IMG/VR virus record: IMGVR_UViG_3300031867_000006
Span: 32,001-96,000 of that record
Reading direction: 5' to 3' (one strand)
From: a virus
Lineage: Duplodnaviria; Caudoviricetes
Length of the DNA: 64,000 nt
Under the pieces are notes generated by a model. It did no database searches, was not told where the DNA came from, and worked only from the letters and a program-made list of their open reading frames with translations. Positions 22,201-62,093 of this stretch are shown in pieces (position 1 is the stretch's first letter; each line of letters opens with the position of its first letter). The translations under genes were made by a program, and so were the position numbers.

Positions 22201-25200
22201 GCTCTCCATGAACAGCAGCAATAGCATTAGCTCCAAATCTAATAGCTGCAGTTCCTGCAGTTAGCGGGCTCATAGCTATTCTTCTAACATCGTCAATACC
22301 AGTACCAATTAAATTCCTAGCTTTACCAAGTTTACCTTTATATTTAAAATCGGCAGACACACCATGTATACCAATTTTTCCAGGTATATTAGTAATATCA
22401 TCAGTATGAAATCCAGTACTACGTGTCAAATGATCTTTAAATTCATCTGTAAGCTGTCTATCATCACTACCGAACCATTTATCAATTCGTTTCTGATAGA
22501 TAGCATCGTATTTCTCATTAACCTTCTCAAGAGATTCATCGAATTTGGCAGACATTTTATTTACAATATCTTGAAGCCCACCATCTTCTCCATCAGCAAT
22601 TTTAATACCCTTAGTAGCAATATCACTAACAAATCCTTTAATATCAGCTACATTCTCAGGAGTTTTTAATTGCATACTCTGATCAACTTGATTACCTGCT
22701 TCTCTATTAGTAATCTCAGTATTAAAGTTCTTTACAAGTTTAGATATGTCATATCTACTACCAAGATTAACCTTCAGACCCATATTCTTGAATGTATCTT
22801 CAAGTTCAGCTCTGGTTTCGGCTAACTCTCCTTCTGTAAGCTTTCCAGCTCTAGCTTTACGCTCTCTGATATCAACATAGCCTTTAAGTTTAGATTGAAG
22901 ACCGGTATCCCCTTCCATAAGACTTTCAAGTTCTTTTTCACTGATACCAGTTGAAGAACCAGAAGTTCTATATTTCTGAAGTACTGCAGGAATCTTATCT
23001 ATTTCACCAGCGTCTAAATGCTTTCTTATTTGCTTAAGAGCGGCTCCACTAAGTTTATTACCATTACCATCTCTATAGTTATTAAGAATTGAATCTATCT
23101 CTTTGCGTCGCCTATTAGATTCTCTTGTAAGACTAGCATTATTATCAGAAATGTCTTCAAGCTTCCTAACCATATCCTTGGCATCTTCTAATGATAGGTC
23201 TCCCTCTGCAGAACCGCCAATGTTAGCAAGCATTCTATCAAAGTCACTTACTTTATTACCACGCTTATTATTCATTTGCCATTCGATACGCTCAGCAGCA
23301 GTCATATAATCTGCTTCTCCACGTTCGATAGCTTTACCTCTAATACGATCACCTGCAACTCCAAAAAGCTTAAGTGGGCTAGTAGCAATATTAAATGCCT
23401 TCTTACCTAACCATAAACCAGCACGAGCCGGCGCAGTAGCAGCTTTAGTAACTCCGAGTATAGATCTAGATAAAGTACCAGCTAACCCTTCATCACTTTC
23501 AGCCCATTCAGTAATCTTTCTAGGTATAGAACCAAGCGCTTTAGGTAATGCATGTATAGCAGGTACTGTAAATTTGTTTAATGGAAGAATTATATTCTTC
23601 TCAATTGTATTCATCAGATCATCTTTAAATGATAAAGCTGATTTGGTTAATGGTTCAAAAGCATCTGATAAGAATCCAACCAGTCCACCTTCTCTAACAC
23701 CATTAACATCTATACCAAGGATCATGTCCTTGAACTCGTCGGTGGTAGTCATCATGCCTAAACCAGCACCGATAGCCATATTACCAACTAATCCGAAAGG
23801 ACCACCAAATACAAGTCCGGCAATTGCTCCGCCAGCAGCACCTTTAGCAGCCCCAGGAAGTAACTGCTTAAGAATATCTGTTTCTTTGCTAGATAACTTA
23901 AGAGATCCACCCTCACCAAAGTACTTCTGCATGAAAGTTTCATTATTCTTAAGTAATCCAATAGTACCACCAACAAGAAGTCCGCCTATAGGACCTAATG
24001 GTGTAAGCATACCAGGAATAATTCCAGCAAGACCATACTTAACCATATCCGGGAAGTACTTCTTGAATGTATCCTGAAGATCTTTAGATATAATTCCACC
24101 AGAACGCGACTTGCCATCTTCCCCAAGTTTACCAAACAGCTTATCCTTAAGGAACGTAGAATTCCTAATAATATTAACACCAGCGCCTAATGCAGCTCCA
24201 AATAAAGGACCACCAACAACCATTCCAAGAGCTCCACCAGTTGCACCACCAGCCAATGCTTCTGGAGCATACTGCTTAGCTTCTTTCAGGAAGTCTTTAA
24301 CTGTAACATCACCATTGGAAATATCAATACTTCCACCAGCATGTTTTGCTACAGATAATCCCATTCTCTTAGCCATTAATTCTTCTCGACCAAGATCCTG
24401 CTGTTTACCAACCAACCCCTTAGGATTATAAATATGAGTATAATCACCAAGCCCATAAGCTCCAGTCTTAGGTACAGTTCCTCTATAGTCTAATACGTTA
24501 GGTGAACCATCGCCATTTACACCGTAGAGTTGCTCTCCTTTGGAAAGCATAGTAATACCCTTAAATGGAGCTTTGAATGTACCTTTAGCATGTTGCTGTA
24601 CATTAACTCGTTCTATGCGAGTAATAAGCATATTCTTATGCTTATTTTCATCATATCCACCGCGAGAAGCAGCCATACGTAACTCATCGATCTTAGTATC
24701 TGAAACTCCAAGCTTACGGCATTCCTCCTCAAGCTCTTCAGGAGTCATAGCTAACATCTTACGATAATCTCTACTAGCATAAGCTTTATTAGGACTATAT
24801 AAAACACTTAATCTCTCATCACGCTTCTCTTTTGTAGCTAAAGCATCGTTCTTCTTAACCCAACCAAGTTCACCTGATTTTGTTAATCCTTGCTGCCAAC
24901 CCTTAGCAGTCATTCTTTCCATAGCCGCTCTATTATTGCTTCTGATAGTAGCAGCATTCATTGGCTCCTTAATATATTTATCATATACAGGACCATAGAC
25001 TTCTTTATTAGCATTGACAAACATCTTGCCAAGACCAATAAATTGATCTTTAAGAGATTCAGTAAATCTATCCTTGAAATCGTCACCTAAACCAAGCTTT
25101 TCTTTAAGAGGGTCAAAGATTGTATCTTTGAGATAATCGCCGGCTTTAGTAAACAGATCATTGGTTTTGCCAATAAGCATTTCCATAAAGCCGCTATACT

Positions 25201-27733
25201 TATTCTTATCGCCATCTTGGTCAGTGCCTTCAATTTCAGTTCTGTAGAATATTTCATATATATTTTTATCAGCAGCATAAATAAGATCTGTCATAGCAGT
25301 GGTCATACCACCAGCTACAGCAGCTGTAATAGAACCATATTTATTAAGAGCTCCAGATATCTTAGTAAAGATATTTTTCTCTTCCGGAGTTTCTAATTCA
25401 TTGGTTTCTTTCTCAGCCTTCTTAGCCTCACGTTCAATATCATCTCTTGTAATAAACTTACCACCGTAAAGCTTTTCGTTAAGAGCTTTGCTTAATGCAT
25501 TGCTATTAACTTTATTCTTCATATCACGGTTATAAGTATCTGTATTTACATCGATAAGAAGATCTGCTAAGTGCTGAAGTGCTTCTGTATCTTCATCACT
25601 AAATCTGGAGAAATCAACAGCCTTACCTTCGAGGATATTCTTTATAGCTTTACGTTTGATCTCTTCATCTTTATTCTGTCTATCAGCAACACTAGTCTGA
25701 GGTTTATTAGGATTAGTAAGACTAATATTCTTAAAGTCTACTTTAACAGCATTATCTGCAACTGTACCACCAGTACCAGCAACAACTCCGCCGTTAACTC
25801 TAGCCCAGATAAGTTCCTTATTAATATTCTGAAGATAATTAAATAAGGAATTGCCATACTCATCCTTAATCTGAAGTAATGGAGAAGAACCTTCCCATTT
25901 CTCAGATTTAGAATCGCCTATTTTAGTCCACTTTCCAGCAGCTCTATCAGATTTAGATGTAGATTCATCCTGGAAGATAGTTGTTATAGTATCCGTAACT
26001 CCAGAATTAATACTGTCTATAATCCTCTGCTCCTGAGCTTTTGAATCAAGAACCTGACGAGAATTCATAAGCTTAGAATAGTCAGTAACTACATTACCAC
26101 GTCTATCTCTACGCTTAGCAGAATTCTTATAGATATCAGCAATCTCTTTATAATGCCTATAGAATGCCGGATATTCAGCATAGCTAACATCATTCTTTGT
26201 AGGCGTTGCATTAGGATTAAATATACCATTGTTATTATAGAGATACATCTGGAACTCAAGCATAGCCTGATTGATCTCATCAATTTCAGCCTGAGACTGT
26301 GCTCCTGCCTTACGTATATTTAATCCAGTTGTCATGTTAGCTTTAACATCAGCTGTAGCAGACTGAATAGCATTATTCTTAATATCATCATATCTTCTTC
26401 TTATAGCTCTAGCATCAGTAAATTTACCAGAGTTATAATCAAAGATTCGTTCAGGATTACTACTTAATACAGACTCAATCCTTCTCAAATATGCGGGGAT
26501 AACTTCAATGATAGCTTTACGAGTAATACCATCAAATGGGATTGGTCCCTTCTCATATTTAGAAGTATCTATAGATCTACTTACATTGGTATTTATACCA
26601 AATATCTTGGCTACCATCTCAAGAGGACCGCCTTTGCCGATCTGATTTCCAAGTGAACCTATAGCAGTAGCAAATGCGTTAGATATCGTTCCATTAAGTT
26701 CTTTAGTGGCTTCTTTAAGTGTAGCAGGAATAGCTGCTTTAACCATGAAATCGGTAATGAATCTTAATGGCGATGTCATCATAGCCATAAGCATATTGGA
26801 ATCTCCGCCCATTCCAGGCATAAGTGATTCCATTTCTTTATTGATATTAGTCTTTATATTCTTAAAGTAATTATCAATGTCAGGCATACCAGAACTGGAG
26901 ATTTCACTCCATTTCATAATACCTCTAGATTTCTGGTTTTTCTGAGCAGATTGCTTTTCTTTCTCCGCAGCAGACGTATACTGCTGCTTCTGAAGTTCTA
27001 GCATTTCCTTAAGTATAGAGTTGCGTTCTGTATCTAATTTAATAGATTCAGTAAAGTAACTGCTCATATTCTTATCCATATTTCCCAAGCTTGTCGCTAA
27101 AAGATTATGGATTGTTCCCATGGTAGAATTTACTACGGAGATATCATTATGAATGCCTCCGATGAGACGTTCATTCTGATTGTAAATCATACCAACGGAA
27201 GTTCTCATATTCTTAATCTGAGCATCTGATGCAGTCATTACAGCATTAACTGTAGCACCAGCGACAGCCTTATTAGATCCTTCTATAGCACTTGCTATAA
27301 TCTTATCTCCGGCTGTGACCTCTGATTTAGAACCTTGAGTGGATGTATCTTTAGATTTGCCATTAATAATGTCTTCCCAGTTGTCATCAATCCCGAACTC
27401 AGAAAGATCATTCATATCGTCGGCATCAATTCCAAGGAATTTACCAGCTTCTGCTTCGCGCTCTTTATTATAGAATTTACCAGTCTTCAAATCCTGGATA
27501 GCATTCTTCAAGCCATAATCAGCAGCTTGATAAATCTTAGAGTTCTTTACATAACCAATTGATCTGGTTATTGTAGTCGTAGGATGTCTAACTGCTTTAT
27601 ATACATTGACAAACGCATCCTTATTAGACGCAGCAAAATCTATCATTTCAGGAGCATCTTGCTTTGCAGTATCTACTGCACTATAAGCAATGGATTTCAT
27701 TACATTTTTCATGTAGTTATTACGAAGCGCCAC
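16262..27733 (-). CDS. Giant tape-measure-like virion protein with C-terminal peptidase C39-like, 3D/DPBB-like and NlpC/P60 domains
   Basis: About 3820 aa (probable GTG start 27733 after GGAGG). Long Gly/Ala/Lys helical body with glycine-zipper segments. Motifs QTIGDSACGP...PHYVTVTG...VQDP; GRYTIACTTTFGQVGD...IIADIK; NDCTGL...KGDIISRNGHAEIF. Confidence 0.75.
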   Translation of the reverse strand: MALRNNYMKNVMKSIAYSAVDTAKQDAPEMIDFAASNKDAFVNVYKAVRHPTTTITRSIGYVKNSKIYQAADYGLKNAIQDLKTGKFYNKEREAEAGKFLGIDADDMNDLSEFGIDDNWEDIINGKSKDTSTQGSKSEVTAGDKIIASAIEGSNKAVAGATVNAVMTASDAQIKNMRTSVGMIYNQNERLIGGIHNDISVVNSTMGTIHNLLATSLGNMDKNMSSYFTESIKLDTERNSILKEMLELQKQQYTSAAEKEKQSAQKNQKSRGIMKWSEISSSGMPDIDNYFKNIKTNINKEMESLMPGMGGDSNMLMAMMTSPLRFITDFMVKAAIPATLKEATKELNGTISNAFATAIGSLGNQIGKGGPLEMVAKIFGINTNVSRSIDTSKYEKGPIPFDGITRKAIIEVIPAYLRRIESVLSSNPERIFDYNSGKFTDARAIRRRYDDIKNNAIQSATADVKANMTTGLNIRKAGAQSQAEIDEINQAMLEFQMYLYNNNGIFNPNATPTKNDVSYAEYPAFYRHYKEIADIYKNSAKRRDRRGNVVTDYSKLMNSRQVLDSKAQEQRIIDSINSGVTDTITTIFQDESTSKSDRAAGKWTKIGDSKSEKWEGSSPLLQIKDEYGNSLFNYLQNINKELIWARVNGGVVAGTGGTVADNAVKVDFKNISLTNPNKPQTSVADRQNKDEEIKRKAIKNILEGKAVDFSRFSDEDTEALQHLADLLIDVNTDTYNRDMKNKVNSNALSKALNEKLYGGKFITRDDIEREAKKAEKETNELETPEEKNIFTKISGALNKYGSITAAVAGGMTTAMTDLIYAADKNIYEIFYRTEIEGTDQDGDKNKYSGFMEMLIGKTNDLFTKAGDYLKDTIFDPLKEKLGLGDDFKDRFTESLKDQFIGLGKMFVNANKEVYGPVYDKYIKEPMNAATIRSNNRAAMERMTAKGWQQGLTKSGELGWVKKNDALATKEKRDERLSVLYSPNKAYASRDYRKMLAMTPEELEEECRKLGVSDTKIDELRMAASRGGYDENKHKNMLITRIERVNVQQHAKGTFKAPFKGITMLSKGEQLYGVNGDGSPNVLDYRGTVPKTGAYGLGDYTHIYNPKGLVGKQQDLGREELMAKRMGLSVAKHAGGSIDISNGDVTVKDFLKEAKQYAPEALAGGATGGALGMVVGGPLFGAALGAGVNIIRNSTFLKDKLFGKLGEDGKSRSGGIISKDLQDTFKKYFPDMVKYGLAGIIPGMLTPLGPIGGLLVGGTIGLLKNNETFMQKYFGEGGSLKLSSKETDILKQLLPGAAKGAAGGAIAGLVFGGPFGLVGNMAIGAGLGMMTTTDEFKDMILGIDVNGVREGGLVGFLSDAFEPLTKSALSFKDDLMNTIEKNIILPLNKFTVPAIHALPKALGSIPRKITEWAESDEGLAGTLSRSILGVTKAATAPARAGLWLGKKAFNIATSPLKLFGVAGDRIRGKAIERGEADYMTAAERIEWQMNNKRGNKVSDFDRMLANIGGSAEGDLSLEDAKDMVRKLEDISDNNASLTRESNRRRKEIDSILNNYRDGNGNKLSGAALKQIRKHLDAGEIDKIPAVLQKYRTSGSSTGISEKELESLMEGDTGLQSKLKGYVDIRERKARAGKLTEGELAETRAELEDTFKNMGLKVNLGSRYDISKLVKNFNTEITNREAGNQVDQSMQLKTPENVADIKGFVSDIATKGIKIADGEDGGLQDIVNKMSAKFDESLEKVNEKYDAIYQKRIDKWFGSDDRQLTDEFKDHLTRSTGFHTDDITNIPGKIGIHGVSADFKYKGKLGKARNLIGTGIDDVRRIAMSPLTAGTAAIRFGANAIAAVHGERKLGRDINKAIRNGETRANLSDNLAEINQFAKFKMRFDSDAHNYIHNELTEKEIKTIYSIFSDYKYISHYFAARSAKGRGKLVNKDELAYLLTLNMFNLNDLNAKCKEIVKAKLWTTYDSIQGVDKISPVERQNLKTGLTQNADTEEIESNGIGTFLLGAAAKGIGAIGKGILGAGKSLLGGAKKAKALKDMLPFGQKEEAGSAGGGSSVLGGDLDDKGDGKMPIINADGEAMIFKKSNDGSIDPDTTDPKTKAIVTAKKLKDAAAEKLHTAQQKMSDRFNSMFDNMDEEGKGTKLNPLAMLFGGYLLWKSGILKKIYDGFIKPIWEKVLHPWITEKVVPWITGTAIPAIGTALVNIGSSIKEALFGDKSLGDIIHDAIFGSGDGDKDGGPSNGPGGAAGAALTVMDNVTGNKTNVGFKNKYSTNRLQELVEKYGADTLSGMYDENGNQLTYGQIANGQYSKIYNVDGTEGYIDKDGNLAFKDPSFKGSSYAKVTANGMAHAAAVGGSPLVTQVSKFSGKLLKSKSVLGKAGGVIGKAITTPLEAAGDIGKGIGRKAAGETFFENGSKGATVVNRIKGAKDAVKKSVGDFVKKGEFINSADDATRALMEGAGGGLSKSDKVASVVAKMKDALVKGLDNLFNSPIVQNRLAKAAKAVGENAMKYAAKLKKQVSETFLKAIGRGSAEAGEALLKNAASKLNLIVTVAFLIADFVTGCDQAESILGVSDTNLLEELGCGLVNALANLLIIPAVIPGVPWICSNLFKLMGDDLEERQKEADAEYQAYLEKTGSTDTKEEYLKKKHSVTGRIGGAIKSGVKKAGKAIKAGAKALGSNIKKAGAFAVDKAKELGSNAINLAKNAGTAVKEGVTKAVNKAVDYGKYIAEQEQKGEALIKDPNSSLTDFLKIDAAPEGPLSGMAHTAAFGARIMSFPIMLVKRIANEIKKFAGKVVDGVKGSFNSLLTNAGNVKDKMMSGDPIGILTSNYEAGENDPLSGINTALYHFTKIYSVPIAAISWAGHKVSDAVKSIVSKAKAGFESLGSNIPAVKEKAAAGDIKGLWSAEFTPTEGDPMAGLNKGLFTIYKLTQVPGAGLHWIGGKISSAFTSAMDKSRTNANAVNNAQESINKAADNVKSMNDIKSIWDVKADLTDGDPIKGVWSMSLGLSKIGGSIKGIFNMIIEPMLNFIDDVKDKIGDFVDGAKDLADGVSDWVGDKADKASKAYDSAKTSAGNWLNDKWQAAKKFVTGTGTYGRGYSKQIDSSIANLPYNSSADRSRQTIGDSACGPAAAVNVLESFGRGKNPIVAASNYAVSRGYKETDGGTKPGFFTDYFSKNGLGSEISYNRNTLEKNINSGMPTVLMGSDGRGTSSSTPFGKSPHYVTVTGTVGNKSIVQDPESPYDNQLYDTRSLLNKTSLGVSAYGRGSGIIPIYGIGKYGTGPTTINIPAGLGGVHSYMGWQCITSPSSAQYKLRAAKGQNFNSEGFGIIDGRYTIACTTTFGQVGDAVDFYKANGKVLKCIIADIKNPTDKGCNTWGHLDGKCIVEFVVDKRTWYSSSKGGAAASMHANPGTASCHPEWGNTTITKAVCYGSANAPAGDAGSAASTGADTGVVNGAAASIDTTTQQPDDPLSAFTNALTKTMSESKIGKAMGLMSSSSSTTTTTTGDSGGDAGSPYQSGGAASGDMSSWISTIETVKKAIAANNPTYQAPMMSTITINGEKLKYRNDCTGLTSAAAMAAGAMETGIWPPASGAWTSGSGISLKGFTKMGWPGWEGLQKGDIISRNGHAEIFSHNEGGRHMVWNGGSTNALRTPGVSGSSHPSYTTIWRRNSEPLTSPFGKGDNGIKPLSKYGQLQDSYKYGRGGQTLNYIPAKKTASSKESSLYYEDPKGTDKPRYGKGSDIDLTQIINFLMTIADNTDKLNTIVKILNKKLNVEITAEDVANAQSGQSTKRQITGKGTSTYDKYTDQLNDQSLASVVNAMKAIAAE

Positions 27734-27767
27734 TAGGTTCACCTCCCTTCATTTGGGTTATTTTAAT

Positions 27768-27779
27768 TACAGTAATGTC
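27768..27779 (-). promoter_or_regulatory. Late-type promoter GACA-N6-TA
   Basis: GACATTACTGTA. Confidence 0.6.
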
Positions 27780-27829
27780 AAATCTAACAAAAAATAACAG
27801 GCTATGGGTTAATTAAGCAAAAAAGAATC

Positions 27830-27851
27830 CCCTAGGGATTTCTCCCTAGGG
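27830..27851 (-). terminator. CCCTAGG-family terminator
   Basis: CCCTAGGGA-tttc-TCCCTAGGG followed by a T-tract on the minus strand. Confidence 0.75.
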
Positions 27852-27903
27852 TGTTAGAAAGGAATATATGTTTAACAAGGCGTCTATGCCATTGATTGCC
27901 TAA

Positions 27904-28434
27904 TTACTTAAGCCAGGAAGGGCAAGAACCTGCAACGCTGAGTGTCTCATAGCTGGGAACCTTTGTAGACTGCTTAGAATATGCAGGCGTTCCATCAGGA
28001 TTAACACCAGTCTTAATGGGGAATGTTGATACAGACTCAGGCTTGATCTTAAGCTTAAGAGATACGTCGCTCTTTTCACGCTTTCCAAGAGGAAGCTTCC
28101 TGCCAGTATGAAGATAGGTATTGATAAACTCCTTAGAAATTCCAACCATAGCTGTAGCATCAGCCTTGGTGAATTCGTAACCAGCTGCAAGAGTCTGAGC
28201 CTCTGCCTTGGGAATAGAACCAGCTCCAGCAAGGATATCAGTAGCAATTACAACTGCATCTTCACGAGGGCAGTACTGTCCTTCAACGCCAGACTTGCCG
28301 TAGATATCAACCTTATAATCCGGATCATTAAGCATTGCTCTCATTACGCTGATCTCATCTGCCTTGGATGCCGATGACTGTGTCTTCTCAGTATCAATTT
28401 TCTTTACAAGGTCTGTTACTTTAATTTGTTCCAT
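27904..28434 (-). CDS. Hypothetical protein, possibly HU-like DNA-binding
   Basis: Start MEQIK at 28434 with GGAGG; C-terminal TGVNPDGTP...KVP arm loosely resembles the HU GRNPxTGE...IP arm. Confidence 0.4.
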   Translation of the reverse strand: MEQIKVTDLVKKIDTEKTQSSASKADEISVMRAMLNDPDYKVDIYGKSGVEGQYCPREDAVVIATDILAGAGSIPKAEAQTLAAGYEFTKADATAMVGISKEFINTYLHTGRKLPLGKREKSDVSLKLKIKPESVSTFPIKTGVNPDGTPAYSKQSTKVPSYETLSVAGSCPSWLK

Positions 28435-38062: not shown

Positions 38063-38100
38063 AAAAAATAATAGACCCTCATAAAAGAGCCTATTATTTT
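38063..38100 (-). terminator. Intrinsic terminator closing the RAMP gene + pentamer array unit
   Basis: Minus strand AAAATAATAGGCTC-ttttat-GAGGGTCTATTATTTTTT. Confidence 0.75.
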
Positions 38101-38644
38101 AGTACAGCGCCTCGCTATACTCCACCGAACTCATAGTTACTGAACAGCACCACACCCTGCTTTACCGTAACAGAGCATTACAGTAATTCGCATTACTTCA
38201 CCCCACCACCACGGCACTTTACTCTACAATACCGTACCTATACTATAACCTACTCCACAGCACTCCTCCTTTACAATACGCTACGGGACATTACTCTGCC
38301 CGGCCATACCTTCGCACTACTCTAATTGACTACACATTACTTTACCTAAACCCCACGAAACATCACAGCGGAAGACCACACGATACCATTACTTTACGTC
38401 ACATTGTGAAACTAAACTAGACTTAGTCAAAACGTCGCAACAGCATACCGCATAATACTGAACAATACCGAAACACAACTCCACAGCAATGTACGCCACT
38501 ACACTATACCATTGCTACACACTACTTTGCCTTACTTTGCCTTAACTACACCAGGCCGAACCGTACGAAACTATACCTATACTTCACGTAACTCTACGAT
38601 ACTGCACCATAACAGAACTTCACTCTATTATACAACACCATTAC
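38101..38644 (-). ncRNA. Pentamer-periodic non-coding array (GY-NNN)n; candidate guide-RNA array
   Basis: By hand count, 94 of 106 plus-strand pentamers end in AC/GC; 14 single-C phase slips give 31/36/41-nt units; no ORF of 60 aa or more. Confidence 0.75.
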
Positions 38645-38651
38645 AAAGTAA

Positions 38652-39290
38652 TCAGTCTTCGATGATCTCATAAGTGAATCTACCATATGAGCCATTGCGC
38701 CACTGGCCGAGTCCATTATACTTACCGAAATCAAGCCATTCGTATACTGCCTTCTCAAGCTTGTCATTCAATAGTCTGATAACAAACTCTGCTGTTGCTC
38801 CTTCGTGGATCATTTCGCTATTAGCGAGAGATATACGAGGACCCTGCGCTGTCTCGGCACGCAATGATCTCTGAAGATTATCCATCTCTCCATCATATGA
38901 GATAGGTATCTTGCGAAGCGCAGCATCAGCATTAAGATTACCATCTTTGTCAGGCCCATAGACGAATACCATACCATCTATATATTTCTTATGGGCTTTG
39001 ATGCTGGCTGACGCGTTCTTCTCACCAAGCAGCTTAAGAATGCCGCAGGCATGCTTGAAGAACCCGCGGATCTGGTAATCCCAAAGCAAGGGGTTTCCAT
39101 CTTCATCACGAAGGAATACTGTTTTGCCCTTACGCTCAACTTCCTCAGTACCTAACGCTTCGATCTCTTCTTGCTTATTAGGAGCATCGGGCGCATTACT
39201 AGCAATATACTGACTATAGATGTCAGGATCGCTAGGTGCTGAGCCAAGAACTGGTGTTGTAAAGGTTATTCTAATCTTGATATCTTTCAT
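38652..39290 (-). CDS. Stand-alone RAMP/Cas7-like RNA-binding protein
   Basis: N-terminal beta strand IRITFTTPVLG, middle PLLWDYQIRGFFKHA helix, and C-terminal Gly-rich loop GLGQWRNGSYGRF, all characteristic of RAMP/Cas7-group proteins. Confidence 0.75.
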   Translation of the reverse strand: MKDIKIRITFTTPVLGSAPSDPDIYSQYIASNAPDAPNKQEEIEALGTEEVERKGKTVFLRDEDGNPLLWDYQIRGFFKHACGILKLLGEKNASASIKAHKKYIDGMVFVYGPDKDGNLNADAALRKIPISYDGEMDNLQRSLRAETAQGPRISLANSEMIHEGATAEFVIRLLNDKLEKAVYEWLDFGKYNGLGQWRNGSYGRFTYEIIED

Positions 39291-39334
39291 AATTTTATCC
39301 TCCTTATATTTAAGATATCTATATACTACAATAT

Positions 39335-39347
39335 TATAATATATAAC
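39335..39347 (-). promoter_or_regulatory. Early-type promoter motif GTTATATATTATA
   Basis: Upstream of the RAMP gene RBS. Confidence 0.55.
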
Positions 39348-39369
39348 TCAAATATCTTAAATTCACAAG

Positions 39370-39535
39370 GCGATGAATTGTTGGTTAAGTAGCGCTACAT
39401 ACAGGACTGGATCTGCAGAATACTATGATAATCAATACAAATTACAAATGTTTTGTTTAATAAATCCTGGATCTAATAATTTGGCTGGTAGAGAAATGGC
39501 TAATAATTTCCATAATGATGGAATATATTACGGCG
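39370..39535 (+). repeat. Solo variable-region cassette A
   Basis: GCGATGAATTGTTGGTTAAGT...TATTACGGCG; encodes AMNCWLSSA...GIYYG; 163 bp GCG to GCG; no RBS. Confidence 0.8.
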
Positions 39536-39542
39536 CGTAAAA

Positions 39543-39570
39543 TTGCAGGTACCACTATTGGTACCCGCAA
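39543..39570. terminator. Terminator hairpin after the Ig-domain gene
   Basis: TTGCAGGTACCA-ctat-TGGTACCCGCAA. Confidence 0.7.
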
Positions 39571-39575
39571 TATGA

Positions 39576-42119
39576 TTATTTTTTGATTGTGCCTTTAGAT
39601 TTAGCTTTCTCTTTTACACACTTATAGATGGTGGATTCATCTATTTTATCATTCTTGGCAATATAATAAGCCAGAAGCTTAAGAGCAATGTCTCTAGTAT
39701 CAAACGTAACAACCCATTGCTTTTTATTCTTAACTTTCTTGACTTTACCATACCATGTAACTTTACCCTTGTTTTTACCAGAGGTTCGTTTAAGCTTATA
39801 CTCTTTCTTAGCAGCCTCAACCCATGTTTTGATTTTACCACCATTGTTCTTGATAGTAACCTTAATGGATTTACCAACTTTAAGAGCTGCATTATATCCA
39901 GCACCATTATCAACAGTAGGAGATGAAGTATTCTTCTTATACTTCTTCCACTGCGTCTTCTGCGGATGAGCTTCTGTAGGATAAGTAGTGCTATCGCATC
40001 CACTTGTAGCAACCATGTAATCTTCTTTACAGTATCTACAAAGCATTACATATGGTATAGATCTAGATTCATCAAGCTTCTCTATCTTACCAACAGTATT
40101 ACATGATGGACAACCATATTTATAGTAATCTTTAGAAGATATTATTTTTGCAGGTCCGGCTGCTTTGATTTCTTTCTTGGCGCCATCGCCAGCTACAAAA
40201 CCACCATAGATAAATACTTTTCTAATTACCCATACATTTACAGTATAACCATAATTTAAGAAGTGGGTAAGTCCCTTAATGAATTTCTTAGCATCGTCAA
40301 TCTTCTTAAACATTTTAGCATCTGTAACGATATTAGATAACTCGATAACATCAGAATTCTCACCAACAAAGAGTATCTTACCATTATCCTTATGATTGGT
40401 AGTAATTACATAACGTGTATACAGCTTATAGCAGGACTCTAAATCTTTAAGATTAATCTGCTTATTATTTTTATCGTCCTTAATGGTGAGATCTGCAAAA
40501 TCATCATAATCTTCTAACTCTTCTGTTGTCTGACCTTCATCAGCATCTTCTTCAAGAACTAATGTCTGACCATCATCGGCAACAACATATCCAGCCGGAA
40601 TAACCCATATTGTACAGAAGGCATTATAAGATACGCCAGCGTAATAGTAAGTTGCTTGTAATCTAGCGCGACCCTCTGCTTTACCATAAACCATACCATC
40701 AGAATCTACTGTAAATATATTAGTATCTTGAGAAGTATAATACATTGTACCATATGCGACTGCTGTACCATAAGGCTGAATCTCTATGTTAGGATATTCA
40801 CTATCTCCAACATTGATAACAAATACTGATTCGTCAAATGCGATACCAGTGACAGTATCATCATTTAAGTATTTATTACTATCGTCAACTTCGGAATTAT
40901 CATCTAAATCGTCTTCAGAAGATCCAGTCTCATAACTTGCTTGTACTCCAGTCACATAGCATTCATCAAACTTAGTAGCATCAGATACAGATATACACTT
41001 TATAATCGCATTTCCTGGAGATAAACATGTCACATAACCATTTTCATCAACGGAGAAGCATTCTCCATTAGTATCATCACAATCACAATCCCATGTAACA
41101 CCCTCTTTAGAAGCTATGTATGGACTAATACTATAATTTAACCCTACTGTTGAACCTACAGTGATGAGTAGATTATGACTCTTTAATGTAACAGAAGATA
41201 CAGCAATCTCATCGCCATCTGTAACGTCCTCAGGAATAACTATAGATTCTGAAACAACCTGAGCGGTGGCTGAGAATGTAGCGTCAATTTCTTCTGGATT
41301 ATCCTTCTTATATCTAGTATGAACTACAGTAATTGTAGCCTCACCAATGCCTTGCAGAGTAAGAACACCATGGTTATCTACTAATGCAACTCCAGTATTC
41401 GATGAAGTATACGTTAAGTTAGGTTCTTCATTAGCCGTAGATGGGAAATACTTAAGTTTAGTATATATAGTAGAACCTTGCTTACCTTGATAGATGCTAT
41501 CATTAAATTGCATGCCTGTAATATTAATGATTGTCTCGCCAGTATCAGGCGTAGTAGGCTCCTGATCATTTATAACAATCGTAGAGAAGCACTGCACTGA
41601 CTCATTATATACCGATGCAGATAATACAGCTCTACCAGCGCTTATAGGATAAATATTACCATAAGCATCAACCTTAAAGATTGTAGTATTCGACGACTTG
41701 TATTTAACCTTAGGATAATTAACCAATCCATCAGGCTTAAAACCTAATACAGTCGGAAATGAGCTAGTATTTATAGGAATAGTATATGAATCAGACTCAA
41801 AAAATAACTGCTCAACGAGCTGTCTCTCATCATCCGCTCCAGTAACTAATATGGTAGTAGTACCCTCTATAAGATCATCACCAGAATAAGCTGTTATTTT
41901 AATAACAGCAGTACCATAGTTCTTACACTTAATAGAGACTATACCATTATCTATACTATCTACTGAAGCAATAAGATCATCTGATGATGAAAACTGAAAA
42001 TTAGCATTGCTGTCAGTCAAATCAGATGGTAGCAATATCAAATTAGCTTGTATGGTAGAACCCTGAGCAGATGAGTAAGAAGTCTTCTCAAACTGAATAG
42101 AAGTATATTTTCTAGCCAT
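39576..42119 (-). CDS. Bacterial Ig-like (Big_2) repeat virion protein with Zn ribbon and Lys-rich tail
   Basis: About five repeats of the type YxSSNTxVAxVDxxGxxxxxxxGxAxIT; CPSC...CRYC; late promoter 42149-42160. Confidence 0.8.
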   Translation of the reverse strand: MARKYTSIQFEKTSYSSAQGSTIQANLILLPSDLTDSNANFQFSSSDDLIASVDSIDNGIVSIKCKNYGTAVIKITAYSGDDLIEGTTTILVTGADDERQLVEQLFFESDSYTIPINTSSFPTVLGFKPDGLVNYPKVKYKSSNTTIFKVDAYGNIYPISAGRAVLSASVYNESVQCFSTIVINDQEPTTPDTGETIINITGMQFNDSIYQGKQGSTIYTKLKYFPSTANEEPNLTYTSSNTGVALVDNHGVLTLQGIGEATITVVHTRYKKDNPEEIDATFSATAQVVSESIVIPEDVTDGDEIAVSSVTLKSHNLLITVGSTVGLNYSISPYIASKEGVTWDCDCDDTNGECFSVDENGYVTCLSPGNAIIKCISVSDATKFDECYVTGVQASYETGSSEDDLDDNSEVDDSNKYLNDDTVTGIAFDESVFVINVGDSEYPNIEIQPYGTAVAYGTMYYTSQDTNIFTVDSDGMVYGKAEGRARLQATYYYAGVSYNAFCTIWVIPAGYVVADDGQTLVLEEDADEGQTTEELEDYDDFADLTIKDDKNNKQINLKDLESCYKLYTRYVITTNHKDNGKILFVGENSDVIELSNIVTDAKMFKKIDDAKKFIKGLTHFLNYGYTVNVWVIRKVFIYGGFVAGDGAKKEIKAAGPAKIISSKDYYKYGCPSCNTVGKIEKLDESRSIPYVMLCRYCKEDYMVATSGCDSTTYPTEAHPQKTQWKKYKKNTSSPTVDNGAGYNAALKVGKSIKVTIKNNGGKIKTWVEAAKKEYKLKRTSGKNKGKVTWYGKVKKVKNKKQWVVTFDTRDIALKLLAYYIAKNDKIDESTIYKCVKEKAKSKGTIKK

Positions 42120-42186
42120 TGCTGAATTCCTCCTTCTTTGTAATCAATTACATCAATGTCCTCCAAATAAATAATTGCCATATCTG

Positions 42187-42346
42187 GCGATGAGTTGGTG
42201 GTTTAGAGGGGCTACAAAAACTCTTACTAATTATAATCCACTTAATGGTTTCTTTGGAGTAGAAAATTGTAAGAATATTAATAATGCTGATTATGCTTGG
42301 GCTGCATATGATCCTAATAATGGTAATAAAATAATGAATAACGGCG
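42187..42346 (+). repeat. Solo variable-region cassette B
   Basis: GCGATGAGTTGGTGGTTTAGA...AATAACGGCG; encodes AMSWWFRGA...IMNNG; 157 bp GCG to GCG. Confidence 0.8.
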
Positions 42347-42425
42347 CTTATATAATCTCAAAACATAATATTAATGATCATCGGTCATAATAAACTATCA
42401 AATACTATATAAGGAGGTATTAGCA

Positions 42426-44111
42426 ATGGCTAGGATTTTATCCAATAGACCAGAGCAGGAAGTTTCTCTTTCCGTAATTACCCACTTTAAAGATGGTTCT
42501 GAATCATCCAGAACTTTTAAAGTTGGTGATGTTGTCGAAGGTCTTAGATACGTAAGTAACAGCAAAGTTGTTACTGTAACCGGTAAGATTTCTGCTATCA
42601 AGTATAATACATTCACAGTATCTAGAGTAGATGCAGAGAATGTAAAGGATTTCTTCAATGATGATATTAGAGCAGAATTCTTAGTAATTGATTGTAGTGC
42701 TCAGTATGAGTCTAACATCGTTACGGTTCCTGTAATGGAGATCGTTGAAGATGATGGGGTTGTAGATGTAGTTAAAGTTACATCTTCTCTTCATCCTAGA
42801 GTAACTATGGATATGGAATATACTGACGGGTCTGTTGTTAATCAGGATCTTGAGGTTGGCGATGTAATTACAGATTTCGTAGCAATGAGCGGTACACCCG
42901 GAACGCCTGATATTACTGGTGATTTCAGAATTACAGCATTTGCTTATAAGAACGTAACAGATACTCCTGTAGTGACAGGTCTCTATCTTACGCCTCTGGA
43001 TGGCGGTAAGGCAATTAACGTACCTTTCGGTAATATGATTTCATTTGTAGAGCAGGTTTCCGCATACGTTACAGCAGATAACTCTCTTGGAGAAATCGCA
43101 GATGCTTTAACAGCTTCTGAATCTGGTGTTGTATACGCACAGCTTAATAATGACGTAACTATACCATTGCGTGAAGATGGCAGGATAACCACTCTTATGG
43201 TAGGAGAAGGACAAGAGCTCAACTTGGACTTAAATGGTCATGAGCTTAACTGTGTAGCATACGCACTGTATGGCGACGGTGGCGTGATCAATGTTGAGAA
43301 TGGTACTATTAAGTGCGGTATTGTTGATAAGACTTATGGCGCTATTCAGGCCGCTGGTACAACAGAGCTTAACATGAAGAATATCACTCTTGATACTACT
43401 AATGTAGAGGTTGGTGATAATGAGCACAATTGGCTCTATGGTGTTGTTGGATCTGGTTCTGCAACTATCAATATCGAAGATTGCAAGATAACTACAGATG
43501 AAGCAAGCTGTATCGGTATTACTAACCAGACTAGCGATAATGCTACATTTATCATAGGTGGAGACTCTGTTCTTAAGACCACCAATTGTGGTTGTTTGTA
43601 CATTGCGGATGAACGCGAGGTTATTATTAAGGATAATGCAGTTATCGATGGCTCTATCGTAGCACGTATGGGCGAATTTACTATCCAGGATAATGCTAAG
43701 GTTATGTCTCCTGCAGACAGAGAGCTTGTTGATGGTATTGGTGTTCAGGTTACATTCAGTGGAGTAACTAAAGCTACTGCTGCATTCTGGGCTCTTACTG
43801 GTATTTATGGTACCAATACTGAGAATAATGACATGATCGTTAACGTTAAGGATAATGCTAAGATTATCGGTAAACTTGATAAGGCTATTGAAGTAATGAA
43901 GATTGATACAAAGTTCGATCAGAAAGTTGTATTTGATATTGCTTCTAAGGCTAATCTTGTATCTGTCGATGAAGATCCTATCAGAGTTTACGATAATGCA
44001 GAGCTTAGAGAGATCGCATCTGCTGCTGGTAAGACACTTGGAGCTGCTACAAAGATTACAGATCTTACTATTAAGATCGCTAAGCAGCAGGTTTATCCCG
44101 CAGCTGAATAA
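42426..44111 (+). CDS. Virion/surface protein with a C-terminal parallel beta-helix region
   Basis: 561 aa; LDLNGHEL followed by repeated INVENGTI / INIEDCKI / IIKDNAVI coils; late promoter 42362-42373. Confidence 0.6.
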   Translation: MARILSNRPEQEVSLSVITHFKDGSESSRTFKVGDVVEGLRYVSNSKVVTVTGKISAIKYNTFTVSRVDAENVKDFFNDDIRAEFLVIDCSAQYESNIVTVPVMEIVEDDGVVDVVKVTSSLHPRVTMDMEYTDGSVVNQDLEVGDVITDFVAMSGTPGTPDITGDFRITAFAYKNVTDTPVVTGLYLTPLDGGKAINVPFGNMISFVEQVSAYVTADNSLGEIADALTASESGVVYAQLNNDVTIPLREDGRITTLMVGEGQELNLDLNGHELNCVAYALYGDGGVINVENGTIKCGIVDKTYGAIQAAGTTELNMKNITLDTTNVEVGDNEHNWLYGVVGSGSATINIEDCKITTDEASCIGITNQTSDNATFIIGGDSVLKTTNCGCLYIADEREVIIKDNAVIDGSIVARMGEFTIQDNAKVMSPADRELVDGIGVQVTFSGVTKATAAFWALTGIYGTNTENNDMIVNVKDNAKIIGKLDKAIEVMKIDTKFDQKVVFDIASKANLVSVDEDPIRVYDNAELREIASAAGKTLGAATKITDLTIKIAKQQVYPAAE

Positions 44112-58218: not shown

Positions 58219-60197
58219 ATGGCTAATAAACGATTTAATATAAGCCAATTGGATCAGAAAAGGTTCATTAAAGTTAATGATAGCACATTAGAAGTTACTA
58301 ATCCTGCCATGTTTAACGCTACGAATGGACCAACGCCAGATGGCTTATTAAGTAATACAATATTTGGTATCACCAAAGCTGAGCGTTCTGGTATATATGG
58401 ATATATAGATCTTAAGGAGAAGTTTATCAATCCTTACTTCTATAAGATATGGCTTAAAATAGATAATAAAGTACGTGGATTAATCTATGAAACAGAAACC
58501 TTCTCTATAGATAAGCATGGCTATCTTGTTCAAGATGATAATGGTCAGACCGGTATAAAGTTTATCGAAAAGAATATTCAGGACTTTAAGTTTAAAGATA
58601 CAAAGCAGAAGCACTTTGTGGAAGCTCTCATGAAGGGCGCTAAAGATGGCTTATTCTTTACAGATAAGCTTATTATTATCCCTCCATTCTATAGAGATGT
58701 AGATACATCTGGAGGTGGTCGTATAGGTGTTGGTGAAGTTAATAAGCTATATATTAACGTTCTTAATAAGGTTAAAGCATTGCAAGATGCTAGCGATTAT
58801 GGATTCGATATCAAGGGTGGTATCAGAGGACAAATCCAGGATATTCTATTAGAGTTATATAACTGGTTTACTCTTGGTGAGACTACTATAGGTGGTGAGC
58901 ATACTGGCTCTGGCATATTTAAGAAATTTGGTAGTATGCGAAGATCTGTAATGGCTAAGACTGCAGATTATAGTAATAGATTAGTACTCTCTGCAGCGGA
59001 TACTAATGTAAATAGCAAAGAAGAACTAATGGTAGATTTAGACTATTCTGCTATACCATTAGCATCTGCTTTATCTGTTGCATATCCATTTGTGGTTTAT
59101 AATCTAAGACAGTGGTTTAATAATGAGTTTGGTGGAAAGACTCATTATGACTATATTGATAAAGATGGTAAACCTCAGCAGGTTGAATTAGATAATATCC
59201 TTATTGAATTCTCTGATGATAGAATCGATAAGGAGATTAATGAGTTCATTCATGGATACTCTAATAGATTTAAACCTATAGAAGTGCCCAATAAGGAAGG
59301 TAAGAAGATTTATGTACGCTTTAAGGGTTATTCTATTACTAGAGAGGAATACGCTAAAGGCGTAAGAGAGAATGATACTCTTATAGACAGAGATATAACC
59401 TGGTGCGATTTATTTTATATAGCCGCGTGTGAAGCAACTAAAGATAAATATGCTATTATAACAAGATATCCCATAAGTATGAATTGTGGCATCACATTGG
59501 AAACAGTGTGTTGAAAAATCCATTGAATTGCTGGGAAAGGCTAAAGCTTAGATTCCTATAACGGTGAAGAAATTCAGAAACAATATCTAAGATTGATTAA
59601 TGATGAAATACAAGCCTATATTTAGGTTCTACAATCAATTAATGTCTAATCAGCATCCAGAAATACTGGTTCAACGACTAACCCTGGAATGGGTGTAGGG
59701 CTATTCAATAGTTCGAAGTGATGGAGACCTAAGTCTTATATAGATATGGTCGTGATATAGTCTAATCTTTATGTAACTCATAAAGCTGAATCTTATAATG
59801 AGATTCATACTTCAATAATTTATATAGCAAGGTTCATATATCTTCTACAAATAAGACAGAGCCTGTTGTTATAGATGGCGAATTCTATCAGTGGTATCCA
59901 ATGATACGTCAGAATGATATTGGTGAGAATACATCTAATAGATTTGTAGATACTTGCAATATCTGCAATCTATACTGTAAAGGCATGGGTGCCGATTACG
60001 ATGGTGACACGATATCAGATAAGCTTATGTTTACCAATGAAGCTAATGCCGAGCTTGAGAAATATGTAAATTCCAACGCTCAGTTTATAGCCTTAAATGG
60101 TGTAAGCTTAAGATACCCTTCCATGGAGGCAGTCCAAGCTATATATAACCTTACACTTACATTAGATCAGAATCAATTAACAGATCCAAAGTTCTAA
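58219..60197 (+). CDS. rpoC: Multisubunit RNA polymerase beta'-like subunit, spliced: join(58219..59474,59801..60197), 550 aa
   Basis: GLLSNTIFG, GYIDL..NP, IIIPPFYRD, KTADYSNRLVL, spliced TRYPIDSYFN, catalytic GADYDGD; late promoter 58183-58194. Confidence 0.88.
59475..59800 (+). ncRNA. Group I intron (326 nt, no homing endonuclease)
   Basis: P AATTGCTGGGAA, Q AATCAGCA, R GTTCAACGACTA, S GATATAGTCTA; exon ends in U and intron ends in G; intron 5' AAGTATGAAT is complementary to 3' exon ATTCATACTT (P10). Confidence 0.92.
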
Positions 60198-60252: not shown

Positions 60253-62077
60253 GCGATAACATTGGCTACGGTTTTAAGATCAATGGCATCCTCTTCATCT
60301 CCAGAAGTTTGTATGGTTGGCTGGTTAGATTCTGGTAAAGATAGGCCTTGGTCTGCAGCATTACATGATAATGGTAGTACATTATATAATTACGGCGCGA
60401 TGGAATGGTGGTTAAGGGGAGCTGCTGATCATGGTTTATCAATACCTCCGCATATAACAAATGGAGTATTTACAATGGTATCTAAAGATGCTAGATCTGA
60501 AAGGGTTAATGCTTATACTCAAAGTAATATAACTAATGGAGTTAAATACGGCGATGTATTGGTGGAGTAGAACTAGCACGTACTATCCAGAAGCCCCTAA
60601 TCATTCTGATAATAAAATTAGATTTAATGCTAAAGCTGATGGTGAAGAACATATATGGACAATTCCAGCTTATAGTTGGAATGGTGTTGATGTAGTAATT
60701 GTCGGCGATGAATTGTTGGTGGTTTAGATCAGGATGTTATGTATATATAACTGGAGGTGGTTGGCCAGCTAGGTCTGATAAATCTGCATTCGTTATGTAT
60801 ATGAAAGAAAGGAATCCACCAGTATGGGCTCATTGTGCTAATTTTACATATGTATATGATATTAGTACACCATGTAATTACGGCGATGGAATTGGGATGG
60901 TTATTTAGATCATTTTATGATGTAAGGACACAACCTTCAAATTATTTAAATAAAGATGGAACTGGATATTGTGTATATTGCCAAAGCTATAATAATACTT
61001 CTGGATTAAATTGGATTGCTTATCCTATAAATAAGCCAACTGATAGATATTATTACGGCGATGAGTTGGTGGGAAAGATCTGGCTATAAGCCTGACAAGG
61101 CATCATTTTGTTGTTCAGGATATTATAATACACCTAATGGAACACCTCAAGGTACTAATGCTGCAAAACATAGTGGTACTGGACAATTATTTAATCTCGG
61201 CGATGGAATGGTGGTTGAGGACTTGCCCAAATCATGATATAAATGCTGGTGCTTTAGAAAATAATAAGTCTGTTATAAGTTGCGTTTGGGCGGATGGTAA
61301 GAGTTATTATGCTATACAAGGCGGTAATGGCTATTATGTAAGAAATTTCGGCGATGGATTATTGGGATAGATCTGCTTCATCGAAAATAGTGCAATGTTA
61401 TTAATATTTTCAACAGATGATAGATTTATAAATACAGGTTGGAAAGTTCCGGCATATAAATTCCCTAGTGGTATTGATTGTATTTACGGCGATAATTTGT
61501 TGGTTAAGAAGTGCAGATTATAAAAGTATACCGTGGTATGGCACTCAATATGATAATAAAGATGTGAGTTTTATTTATATTAGCCCAGATGGTTCAGTAA
61601 ATTGTACTGTTGCATGCCATGGATCATCTAGCCCTAGTAATTACGGCGATGTATTGGAGAACAAGAACTAGTTCATCTCAAGCTGGCGATTGGGCTACAG
61701 ATAATAAAAGTTGTTATATGTGTATTAATGGTACTTATGTAATTAAAGCGGTGAATACATATGCTGCAACTAGTGTCGGCGATAACTTGGTGGAATAGAT
61801 CCGCTGCTGGAAACCATTGGAAATATAAAACTATTGGATTTACTGAAACTACTATTGATGGAGTATCAGACTTTAATTATGCGTGGAGATGGGAATCTGC
61901 TGAACCATATCAAATAATATATCACGGCGATGGATTGGTGGACAACTAGTGCTATGTCTGTATATGCTAATATTTATCATAGTGGTAGCACTGGTAAAGA
62001 TTATTGCCCTATAGATAATAAAGGTGAACCATCGTATCAATTTGCTGGTAATTGTGGATATAATATAGATTTCGGCG
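60253..62077 (+). repeat. Tandem array of 12 variable-region cassettes (CLec/DUF6273-like W-W-x-R-S...G segments)
   Basis: CGGCG(AT) at 60393, 60549, 60703, 60881, 61056, 61198, 61349, 61487, 61644, 61777, 61925, 62073; each unit reads A-[MI]-x-W-W-x-R-[STG]...[YFVLH]-G (degenerate in some). Confidence 0.88.
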
Positions 62078-62093
62078 TTTAAAAAAAGAAGCA

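Follow-up and report, generated by a model that had tools for sequence, protein, structure and literature searches.

Two lone members of a CGGCG-bounded coding-cassette family flank an Ig-domain gene in a jumbo-phage genome

The DNA analyzed here (the window) is a stretch of 64,000 nucleotides, positions 32,001 to 96,000 of a jumbo-phage record of 166 kb (165,769 bp; IMGVR_UViG_3300031867_000006). The record is 59% complete, with 41% of the genome absent. Two lone cassette units, solo 1 and solo 2, lie in the gaps on either side of a Big_2 gene on the minus strand, as the preliminary description had placed them. The features are as follows, in window coordinates except where record positions are named.

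38652..39290, minus strand: gene of 212 aa, with solo 1 in its upstream gap
39369..39535, plus strand: solo 1, a 5' GGCG core and a 163-nt unit ending in the 3' CGGCG core
39542..39571, no strand assigned: two-way terminator-like hairpin (-10.1 kcal/mol, z -2.8)
39576..42119, minus strand: Big_2 Ig-domain structural gene of 847 aa, with a solo on each side
42186..42346, plus strand: solo 2, a 5' GGCG core and a 157-nt unit ending in the 3' CGGCG core
42426..44111, plus strand: gene of 561 aa, downstream of solo 2
60253..62077, plus strand: array 1, 12 head-to-tail units with single shared CGGCG joints, used as the reference for the solos
Record positions about 155-156 kb and 161.5-162.4 kb: two other arrays

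The hairpin is located 6 nt 3' of solo 1, directly past the Big_2 stop codon. A promoter-like word, ACATAATATTAAT (42363-42375), was found between solo 2 and the 561-aa gene, and it is also present in the relative L023. A search of 5.8 billion clustered proteins revealed no close homologue of the Big_2 protein.

Solo 1 consists of GGCG at 39369-39372 and the unit at 39373-39535 (163 nt; ATG AAT TGT TGG ... TAT TAC GGC G), and solo 2 of GGCG at 42186-42189 and the unit at 42190-42346 (157 nt; ATG AGT TGG TGG ... AAT AAC GGC G); both unit lengths are 3n+1. Translated in the frame of the head, solo 1 yields a peptide of 54 aa that starts with MNCWLSS and ends with IYYG, and solo 2 a peptide of 52 aa from MSWWFRG to IMNNG. 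The family is characterized by (G)GCG followed by the head ATG-NNN-TGG-TGG-NNN-AGR-AGY (M-x-W-W-x-R-S) at the 5' end, by the tail NNT-NNC-GGC-G at the 3' end, and by a length of 3n+1. On these features both solo 1 (head GGCG ATG AAT TGT TGG TTA AGT AGC, tail TAT TAC GGCG) and solo 2 (head GGCG ATG AGT TGG TGG TTT AGA GGG, tail AAT AAC GGCG) were classed as members. The earlier statement that the solos share their ends (GGCGATG...CGGCG), orientation, 3n+1 length and peptide pattern with array 1 was thus borne out, the head-frame coding character being shared as well. When the unit was taken out in silico, GGCGC was left at both solo sites, as had been described. The hairpin reported to extend upon removal of the solo 2 unit does fold; however, it is weak (-3.6 kcal/mol, z -2.3), and its 5-bp core is already there with the unit present.

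The pattern GGCGATGN{3,6}TGGN{116,146}CGGCG matched the two solos, six array units and nothing else, with 0 matches expected (100 shuffles). The regular expression suggested in the preliminary description, run over the whole 165,769-bp record, gave 26 matches, all of them units, and 25 of the 26 were 3n+1 and stop-free, compared to 0.1 matches in shuffles. With a profile built from array units alone, the solos were the top two non-training matches in the genome and covered the full model length, with weak scores of 12.5 bits (E 0.029) and 9.7 bits (E 0.22). The letter flanking the 3' core differed, being CGGCG-C at the solos and CGGCG-T at the copy inside a gene (the tip frame, below) and all four array ends. 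The ends, lengths and pattern matches support the view that the solos are true members of the CGGCG cassette family and that (G)GCG/CGGCG is its joint.

We examined the coding character of the units. The head frame contained no stop codon in either solo, and the other forward frames contained 4 to 14. Codon usage was gene-like in the head frame only for both solos (+0.22 and +0.54 bits per codon), and the head frame was open in 30 of 31 units, the other forward frames in none. The number of sites in a promoter scan was no higher than in shuffles, and scanning for promoters and terminators gave nothing usable. Neither Rfam matches at the solos nor tRNAs were found.

The record contains 27 units, distributed over array 1, the two further arrays, the two solos and a single copy within a gene. 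All 27 were mutually unrelated and none was duplicated, which argues against copy-and-paste, as this should leave duplicates. The array joints are bare CGGCG without a hairpin. Because about 77 further occurrences of CGGCG in the record carry no unit, the CGGCG core alone cannot be the target. The two ends of a unit are direct repeats (GGCG ... CGGCG). No terminal inverted repeats were detected, the head and the reverse complement of the tail sharing nothing more, and a MITE or transposon was ruled out by this lack of inverted ends. An integron was also ruled out, with neither an attC site nor an integrase found in the 59%-complete record, as was programmed +1 frameshifting through the arrays, given the lack of a slippery context, some non-ATG heads and one broken unit; frameshifting would in any case be irrelevant to the solos.

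The copy inside a gene is carried by a frame at record positions 14628-13696 on the minus strand, the tip frame, which reads ...GGSA/MNWWLLS...NNG/VSPFCAI (slashes mark the joints). It harbors the family segment in frame and with the same cores, the joints being TCGGCGATG on the 5' side and AACGGCGTT on the 3' side. The 5' core is read as G/GCG/ATG (Ala-Met) and the 3' core as GGC/G.. (Gly-Val); therefore, every unit is 3n+1 and neighbors in an array are out of frame. DUF6273 (PF19789) matched the tip frame with 22.1 bits (23.3 in a six-frame search and 23.7 with neighbors) and the target of the resident diversity-generating retroelement (DGR) with 31.1 bits. DUF6273 is described as a C-type-lectin-like domain and a receptor-binding DGR target (PMC10743442; bioRxiv 10.1101/2024.10.15.618418). 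In alignment A3, the unit occupied the position of the DGR variable region, between the conserved GSA and V[AS]PFC motifs. This C-terminal placement within DUF6273 was found for the cassette family (tip gene, alignment A3) and not for the solos themselves. An AlphaFold2 model of the tip, from a 3-sequence alignment only, had a pLDDT of 33.7, too low for use, and no relative of the tip was found by sequence in the PDB. These comparisons indicate that what each unit encodes is confined to the variable segment (M-x-W-W-x-R-S ... Y-G) at the C-terminal end of a DUF6273 domain.

The N-terminal two thirds of the fibre are missing from the tip frame, in which no clear start could be made out. Because of this truncation, no working acceptor was found in the 59%-complete record, and one may lie in the absent 41% of the genome. 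The tip unit matched none of the 26 stored units, and an expression site with a copied silent unit was not found.

The 212-aa gene served as a query for relatives whose solo 1 place carries different units or is empty. Cassette places in relatives held 0, 1, at least 2 or 4 units, differing by whole units. In L016, whose 212-aa gene is 81% identical, two different units with the same orientation occupied exactly the solo 1 place. The head of the first of these (154 nt, 3n+1) aligned with the solo 1 head, and its 5' edge was ACACATG instead of GGCG. L022 had 4 units, all 3n+1, at a place where L017-L021 (five samples) had none. In the syntenic relative L023 (55%), the order Big_2(-)/563-aa(+) was conserved, the solo 2 place being a unit-free gap of 92 nt, and the position of solo 1 was occupied by a complete DUF6273 fibre gene. 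In L026 (96.3% nucleotide identity) solo 2 was identical, as was the entire 338-nt stretch. These differences indicate that units are gained and lost as wholes. The preliminary description had proposed that the units are mobile and integrate at a GCG core. The joints, the family and the whole-unit differences between relatives agree with this proposal; however, the precise empty sites that it called for did not appear, as no relative showed a base-precise one and the empty relatives, only 55-70% related, lack GGCG there.

Wider searches were also performed. No close relatives of the Big_2 gene or the 561-aa gene were found in IMG/VR, three jumbo phages with 52-58% identity had no units by pattern or profile, and junction patterns across IMG/VR gave no matches or single ones that were probably chance. 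One JGI metagenome that was scanned contained a single 56% relative, without units. GenBank phages gave no DNA match, and tblastn with either solo gave none. No relative of the solo 1 peptide was found among 1.84 billion representative proteins, and its exact product is nowhere else on record. Among Logan contigs of sister bovine-gut samples, one from X2 spans 42005-42405 with no difference. A contig from X3, 98% alike, matches 38626-39376 and continues with 27 unlike letters directly after GGCGATGA, a run below the 31 needed to count; this is a weak hint that the X3 strain may carry another unit at the solo 1 place. Among the Logan matches listed, no X3 contig covered 39377-39621, a coverage gap that proves nothing, and the joints, with short flanks of 21-25 letters, appear to be spurious. 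The relatives and contigs compared gave no sign of a transfer event for either solo.

We consider it reasonably likely that each solo is a single-unit outlier of a reserve of silent coding cassettes, smaller than genes and spread over the genome, which serve as spare loops exchanged with an acceptor tip gene. The units would be kept as spare binding loops for a lectin-like host-recognition protein, and exchange with the tip gene would proceed by breakage-and-joining or short-homology recombination, with the CGGCG cores and the ATG-NNN-TGG-TGG head as exchange points. Because no unit is duplicated, exchange would probably be conservative, by swap or cut-and-paste. The 27-unit library probably lets the phage change what it binds. 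A solo would originate either by insertion of one unit or by unit loss from a small array, and for solo 1 loss from a former small array may account for the observations equally well as insertion. Against this reading, unit and acceptor share no more than 5 to 7 nt of homology on the 3' side, less than ordinary homologous recombination requires. The weak profile scores of the solos, their CGGCG-C ends, the tip unit without a stored match, the lack of any recombinase in the 59%-complete record and the lack of an observed transfer event also count against it.

The preliminary description had favored another route, in which the units would be mobile, as circles or cDNA, and integrate at a GCG core. 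Copying would then run through RNA, perhaps with the DGR reverse transcriptase, integration would occur at GCG/GGCG, and the solos would be recent single integrations; we regard this as unlikely. The DGR is canonical (record positions: VR 25333-25459, TR 26304-26430), with 17 of its 18 TR/VR mismatches at template adenines. Its reverse transcriptase (RVT_1, 40.6 bits, record positions 26984-27685, about 44 kb from solo 1) is the sole nucleic-acid-transfer enzyme found in the record, which would suit this route; searches for an integrase (Phage_integrase), a resolvase, RecA and serine or tyrosine recombinases gave none in the 59%-complete record. The sequence CGGCGC follows directly 3' of the template repeat, but CGGCG cores are absent from the DGR variable region. 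Solo 2 and the tip unit are AAY-rich like the template repeat, with 12 AAY codons each (12 of 52 in solo 2); however, the 27 units include neither duplicates nor adenine-specific variants, and no adenine-specific partner repeat above background similarity was found for the solos or the array units. Integration at the core would also fit the GGCG that bounds each solo on both sides and collapses to one GGCGC on removal, as well as the empty solo 2 place in L023. It is at odds with the unit-free CGGCG copies, with the missing 5' GGCG of the first L016 unit and with the empty relatives, which have no GGCG at the spot.

That the solos are leftovers, either small arrays whittled by deletion between repeated joints or useless fossils of past fibre-gene rearrangements, appears quite unlikely. 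The presence of at least two units in L016 compared to one in the window agrees with whittling, and the fibre gene of L023 at the solo 1 place with rearrangement; the solos are also the lowest-scoring units against the array profile, and solo 1 has no relatives anywhere among the proteins searched. However, DUF6273 homology begins and stops exactly at the cores, solo 1 having a stop codon 5 codons upstream and no trace of the conserved VSPFC tail downstream; a decaying gene would not break twice at an identical pair of points. Each solo retains a single open, gene-like frame, and solo 2 is unchanged in the 96.3% strain, although all 338 nt there are identical.

We hold it quite unlikely that the units are sub-genic mobile cassettes moved conservatively, cut at one CGGCG and pasted at another, with the solos as fresh single landings in intergenic DNA. 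A phage or host enzyme would then read the core and the ATG-NNN-TGG-TGG head. If true, this would be an integron-like trade in domain pieces, not genes, beside a DGR acting on the same kind of receptor-binding domain.

Hardly tenable is a reading of the solos as ordinary small genes for free peptides of 55 and 66 aa: both run from an ATG start through to a stop codon, the solo 2 frame was called as a gene in two assemblies and the solo 1 frame is present in a protein library, but no Shine-Dalgarno core of at least 5 nt was found upstream of any of the 23 unit ATGs, those of the solos included, while most genes of the phage have a strong one (62-71% of long ORFs), the peptides are internal fragments of a lectin-like domain, sister units overlap out of frame and have non-ATG heads (ATA twice in array 1; GCT, GTT, GTT and GGT in L022), and the promoter-like word sits 3' of solo 2. 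With no ribosome-binding site, a partial domain only and such sister heads, the solos are not stand-alone genes, in agreement with the preliminary description.

The solos show that a unit can stand alone outside arrays with exact ends, and the places that hold units vary by whole units among related phages. Their sites have simple, unique flanks at which insertion, loss and replacement can be scored by PCR or in reads, which is hard within a repetitive array.

We found no paper in the literature on such a library. Silent-cassette antigenic variation is known from Neisseria pilE/pilS, Borrelia vlsE/vls and the Treponema tprK donor sites. Like those cassettes, the units are alternative segments, with neither promoter nor start, for a surface-exposed protein region; short conserved words delimit them, and their frames remain open though unexpressed. 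Unlike them, the units belong to a virus, are complete loops whose ends coincide exactly with a 5-nt core, have neighbors that are out of frame and include lone copies in intergenic gaps; in addition, the acceptor showed no donor copy, and the record gave no RecA-type enzyme.

Integron cassettes comprise entire genes, each with a folded attC site of 60-140 nt, and are mobilized by a tyrosine integrase. The units resemble them in being promoterless and arranged head-to-tail at a short core, in varying in number between relatives and in occurring singly. They differ in being part of a domain without an attC-like hairpin, and there is no integrase match in the 59%-complete record. Invertible tail-fibre segments and shufflons (Mu Gin, P1 Cin, R64 Rci) depend on inverted repeats and a dedicated invertase. 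They likewise supply a binding protein of a phage or pilus with alternative C termini, kept beside or away from the gene, whereas the repeats here are direct and no serine or tyrosine recombinase was found.

DGRs with DUF6273 or C-type-lectin targets (Bordetella phage BPP-1 Mtd; gut-phage tentaclins, PMC10743442) vary the same domain and the same segment, and a canonical DGR is present in this genome. In contrast to DGR products, the units vary in length and are unrelated in sequence, and so do not derive from a single template by adenine mutation; no template partner was found for the solos, and the DGR target has no CGGCG cores. Phage receptor-binding tips are known to vary by DGR point hypermutation, by inversion switches and by module swaps between phages. 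Dozens of ready-made, mutually unrelated binding loops in one phage would be a further route to a changed host range.

Two solitary units (solo 1 and solo 2), short coding segments lying alone on either side of the Ig-domain (Big_2) gene, had been noted in the preliminary description to share the ends, orientation and 3n+1 length of the array units, and our analysis confirmed their coordinates and their lengths of 163 and 157 nt. In each solo, GGCG is followed by an ATG with a W-rich head, a body and NNT-NNC-GGCG. A two-gap head-and-tail pattern matched both solos and six array units, whereas 0 matches were expected from 100 shuffles. The genome-wide regular expression proposed in the preliminary description gave 26 matches over the whole record, compared with 0.1 in shuffles. 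All of these were units, and 25 of the 26 were 3n+1 in length without a stop. Together with one further unit with a deviant head, the record thus contains 27 units (record positions number the whole record):

Window 39369-39535, + strand (that of array 1): solo 1, unit of 163 nt, 3n+1
Window 42186-42346, + strand (that of array 1): solo 2, unit of 157 nt, 3n+1
Window 60253-62077, + strand: array 1, 12 units
Record positions 162380-161477, - strand: second array, 6 units
Record positions 155861-154943, - strand: array B, 6 units
Record positions 14628-13696, - strand: tip frame, 1 unit inside a gene

The IMG/VR record (165,769 bp, estimated 59% complete, 36% G+C; the window is its positions 32001-96000) encodes a split phiKZ-type RNA polymerase subunit, tail sheath and tube genes and a family B DNA polymerase, and its genes have strong Shine-Dalgarno sites. 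Sequencing runs containing the stretch were bovine gut metagenomes. The RNA polymerase beta-like gene lies in two pieces (window 58219-59514 and 59901-60197), both matching phrog_2986, and its gap (window 59465-59783) gave a sub-threshold group I intron match (27.9 bits against a gathering score of 50; E 1.9e-4). A G/T-rich, nearly C-free non-coding tract of ~540 nt (window 38100-38640, - strand) lies 3' of the 212-aa gene with a terminator-like hairpin at its end; Tandem Repeats Finder reported only a short 10-nt repeat in it.

The only unit within a long frame forms the end of the 311-codon tip frame at record positions 14628-13696 (- strand). This frame matched Pfam DUF6273 (22.1 bits; in a second search 23.3 bits, and 23.7 bits with neighbours) and shared 58% identity with the C-terminal 311 residues of a 915-aa fibre protein. 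We regarded it as a spare without a start, not as an established site of expression. The fibre protein, which has a DUF6273 end, is the target of a canonical diversity-generating retroelement (DGR) lying complete ahead of the window (record positions 22718-27997). The DGR variable region (25333-25459) and template repeat (26304-26430) showed 18 differences, 17 of them at template adenines. Downstream of the template repeat, a 420-codon frame encodes a reverse transcriptase. Sequence alignment showed that the unit fills the interval flanked by the conserved motifs G-S-A and V-[AS]-P-F-C, the part that the DGR mutates. DUF6273 has been described as a C-type-lectin-like domain of phage receptor-binding proteins, in which its variable C-terminal region forms a hairpin on the surface (PMC10743442; bioRxiv 10.1101/2024.10.15.618418). 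No relative of solo 1 was found among 1.84 billion representative proteins.

The joints of the tip gene read TCG GCG ATG (5') and AAC GGC GTT (3'). GGCG is read there in two different frames, so that a unit from ATG through GGCG is 3n+1, and units stacked on one common CGGCG are each out of frame with their neighbour. The 3n+1 length is a rule of the DNA level, not of the protein level. At the joint of units 0 and 1 of array 1, which reads CGGCGCGATG, the two units are in frame via an Ala codon. CGGCG-T (GGC GTN, Gly-Val) was present at all four array ends and in the tip gene (window 62073-62080; record positions 161477, 154943 and 13720; position 1138 of L022, a contig of a related phage), whereas both solos end in CGGCG-C. 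The word terminating both solos, CGGCGC, also lies directly 3' of the DGR template repeat. The hairpin that virtual removal of solo 2 was said to extend proved marginal (-3.6 kcal/mol, z -2.3).

We further considered whether the solos are translated stand-alone genes, an outcome that the preliminary description had named as contrary to its proposal. A Shine-Dalgarno core of at least 5 nt preceded 0 of 23 unit ATGs, compared with 62-71% of long ORFs. Sister units have non-ATG heads: two units of array 1 begin with ATA, and the four units of L022 with GCT, GTT, GTT and GGT. The head frame was open in 30 of 31 units and other forward frames in none, and the codon usage of the solos was gene-like in the head frame only. 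An open, gene-like head frame that yet lacks start signals thus indicates that the units are not translated where they are located but are kept translatable.

Relatives were fetched by means of the genes flanking the solos. In the Logan contig L016 (212-aa gene 81% identical), two units occupy the solo 1 place in the orientation of solo 1; the head of the first aligns with that of solo 1, and the bodies of both differ from it. This first unit (154 nt, 3n+1) has ACACATG instead of GGCG at its 5' edge and is closer to array-1 unit 61492 than to solo 1. L022 (70% identical) carries four units of 148, 181, 136 and 157 nt (positions 516-1142), with the terminator of a structural gene homologue of 801 aa on one side and a 213-aa gene on the other. 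In five contigs from five samples (L017-L021; 70%), nothing but terminator and promoter separates these two genes. Judged by neighbour genes, the L022 array is the counterpart of array B; its unit 1 resembles array B unit 3 (z 5.3) and its unit 4 array B unit 1 (z 6.9), indicating a changed order. In L023 (561-aa gene 55% identical), the Big_2(-)/563-aa(+) order is kept with a 92-nt gap without a unit, and the word ACATAATATTAAT, located 3' of solo 2, is also present. The solo 1 place is occupied in L023 by an entire 504-aa DUF6273 fibre gene (positions 475-1989), convergent with its Big_2 gene and free of CGGCG cores. Solo 2 was unaltered in L026 (96.3% nucleotide identity) and in a contig from a sister bovine-gut sample. 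With 0, 1, at least 2 or 4 units in relatives, cassette places vary by whole units. A base-precise empty site was not found, the unit-free relatives being too distant and lacking GGCG at the spot.

All 54 differences between L026 and window 40929-42388 precede position 42050, within the coding part of Big_2, and the final 338 nt (gene start, gap and solo 2) are without difference, a pattern suggestive of a mosaic produced by recombination between strains. The Ig-domain gene (window 39576-42119) had no homologue above 29% identity among 5.8 billion clustered proteins, and its two neighbours have hundreds of relatives each. It fills a variable slot bracketed by two direct-oriented units.

The units probably constitute a store of spare loops, and the data fit a proposed exchange of loops between this store and a tip gene via the cores. 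The earlier view of the solos as cassettes bounded by GCG-type cores is supported. Their putative mobility as circles or cDNA is weakened by the lack of duplicates. The record contained 0 duplicated units and the unit of the tip gene was unlike every stored unit, which argues against copy-and-paste by gene conversion or cDNA. Both observations fit better with conservative exchange, or with the absence of any recent exchange. CGGCG occurs ~77 times in the record besides the units, so any enzyme must recognise more than the core. Searches of the 59%-complete record for a tyrosine recombinase, a serine recombinase or RecA found none, only the DGR reverse transcriptase.

In full-text literature searches, no account of such units in phages came up. 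Among known systems, the closest are silent-cassette variation in bacteria, DGRs acting on DUF6273 domains, integrons and the inversion switches of fibre genes. Fibre inversion switches require recombinases that were not found in the 59%-complete record, and integrons are defined by a tyrosine integrase, for which that record gave no match, and by a folded attC per unit, whereas the joints here are a bare CGGCG lacking a hairpin. Bacterial silent-cassette variation is defined by an expression site with sequence copied from a silent unit, which was not seen in the 59%-complete record. DGRs on DUF6273 are defined by a partner repeat differing almost only at template adenines, and in this the units differ from them.
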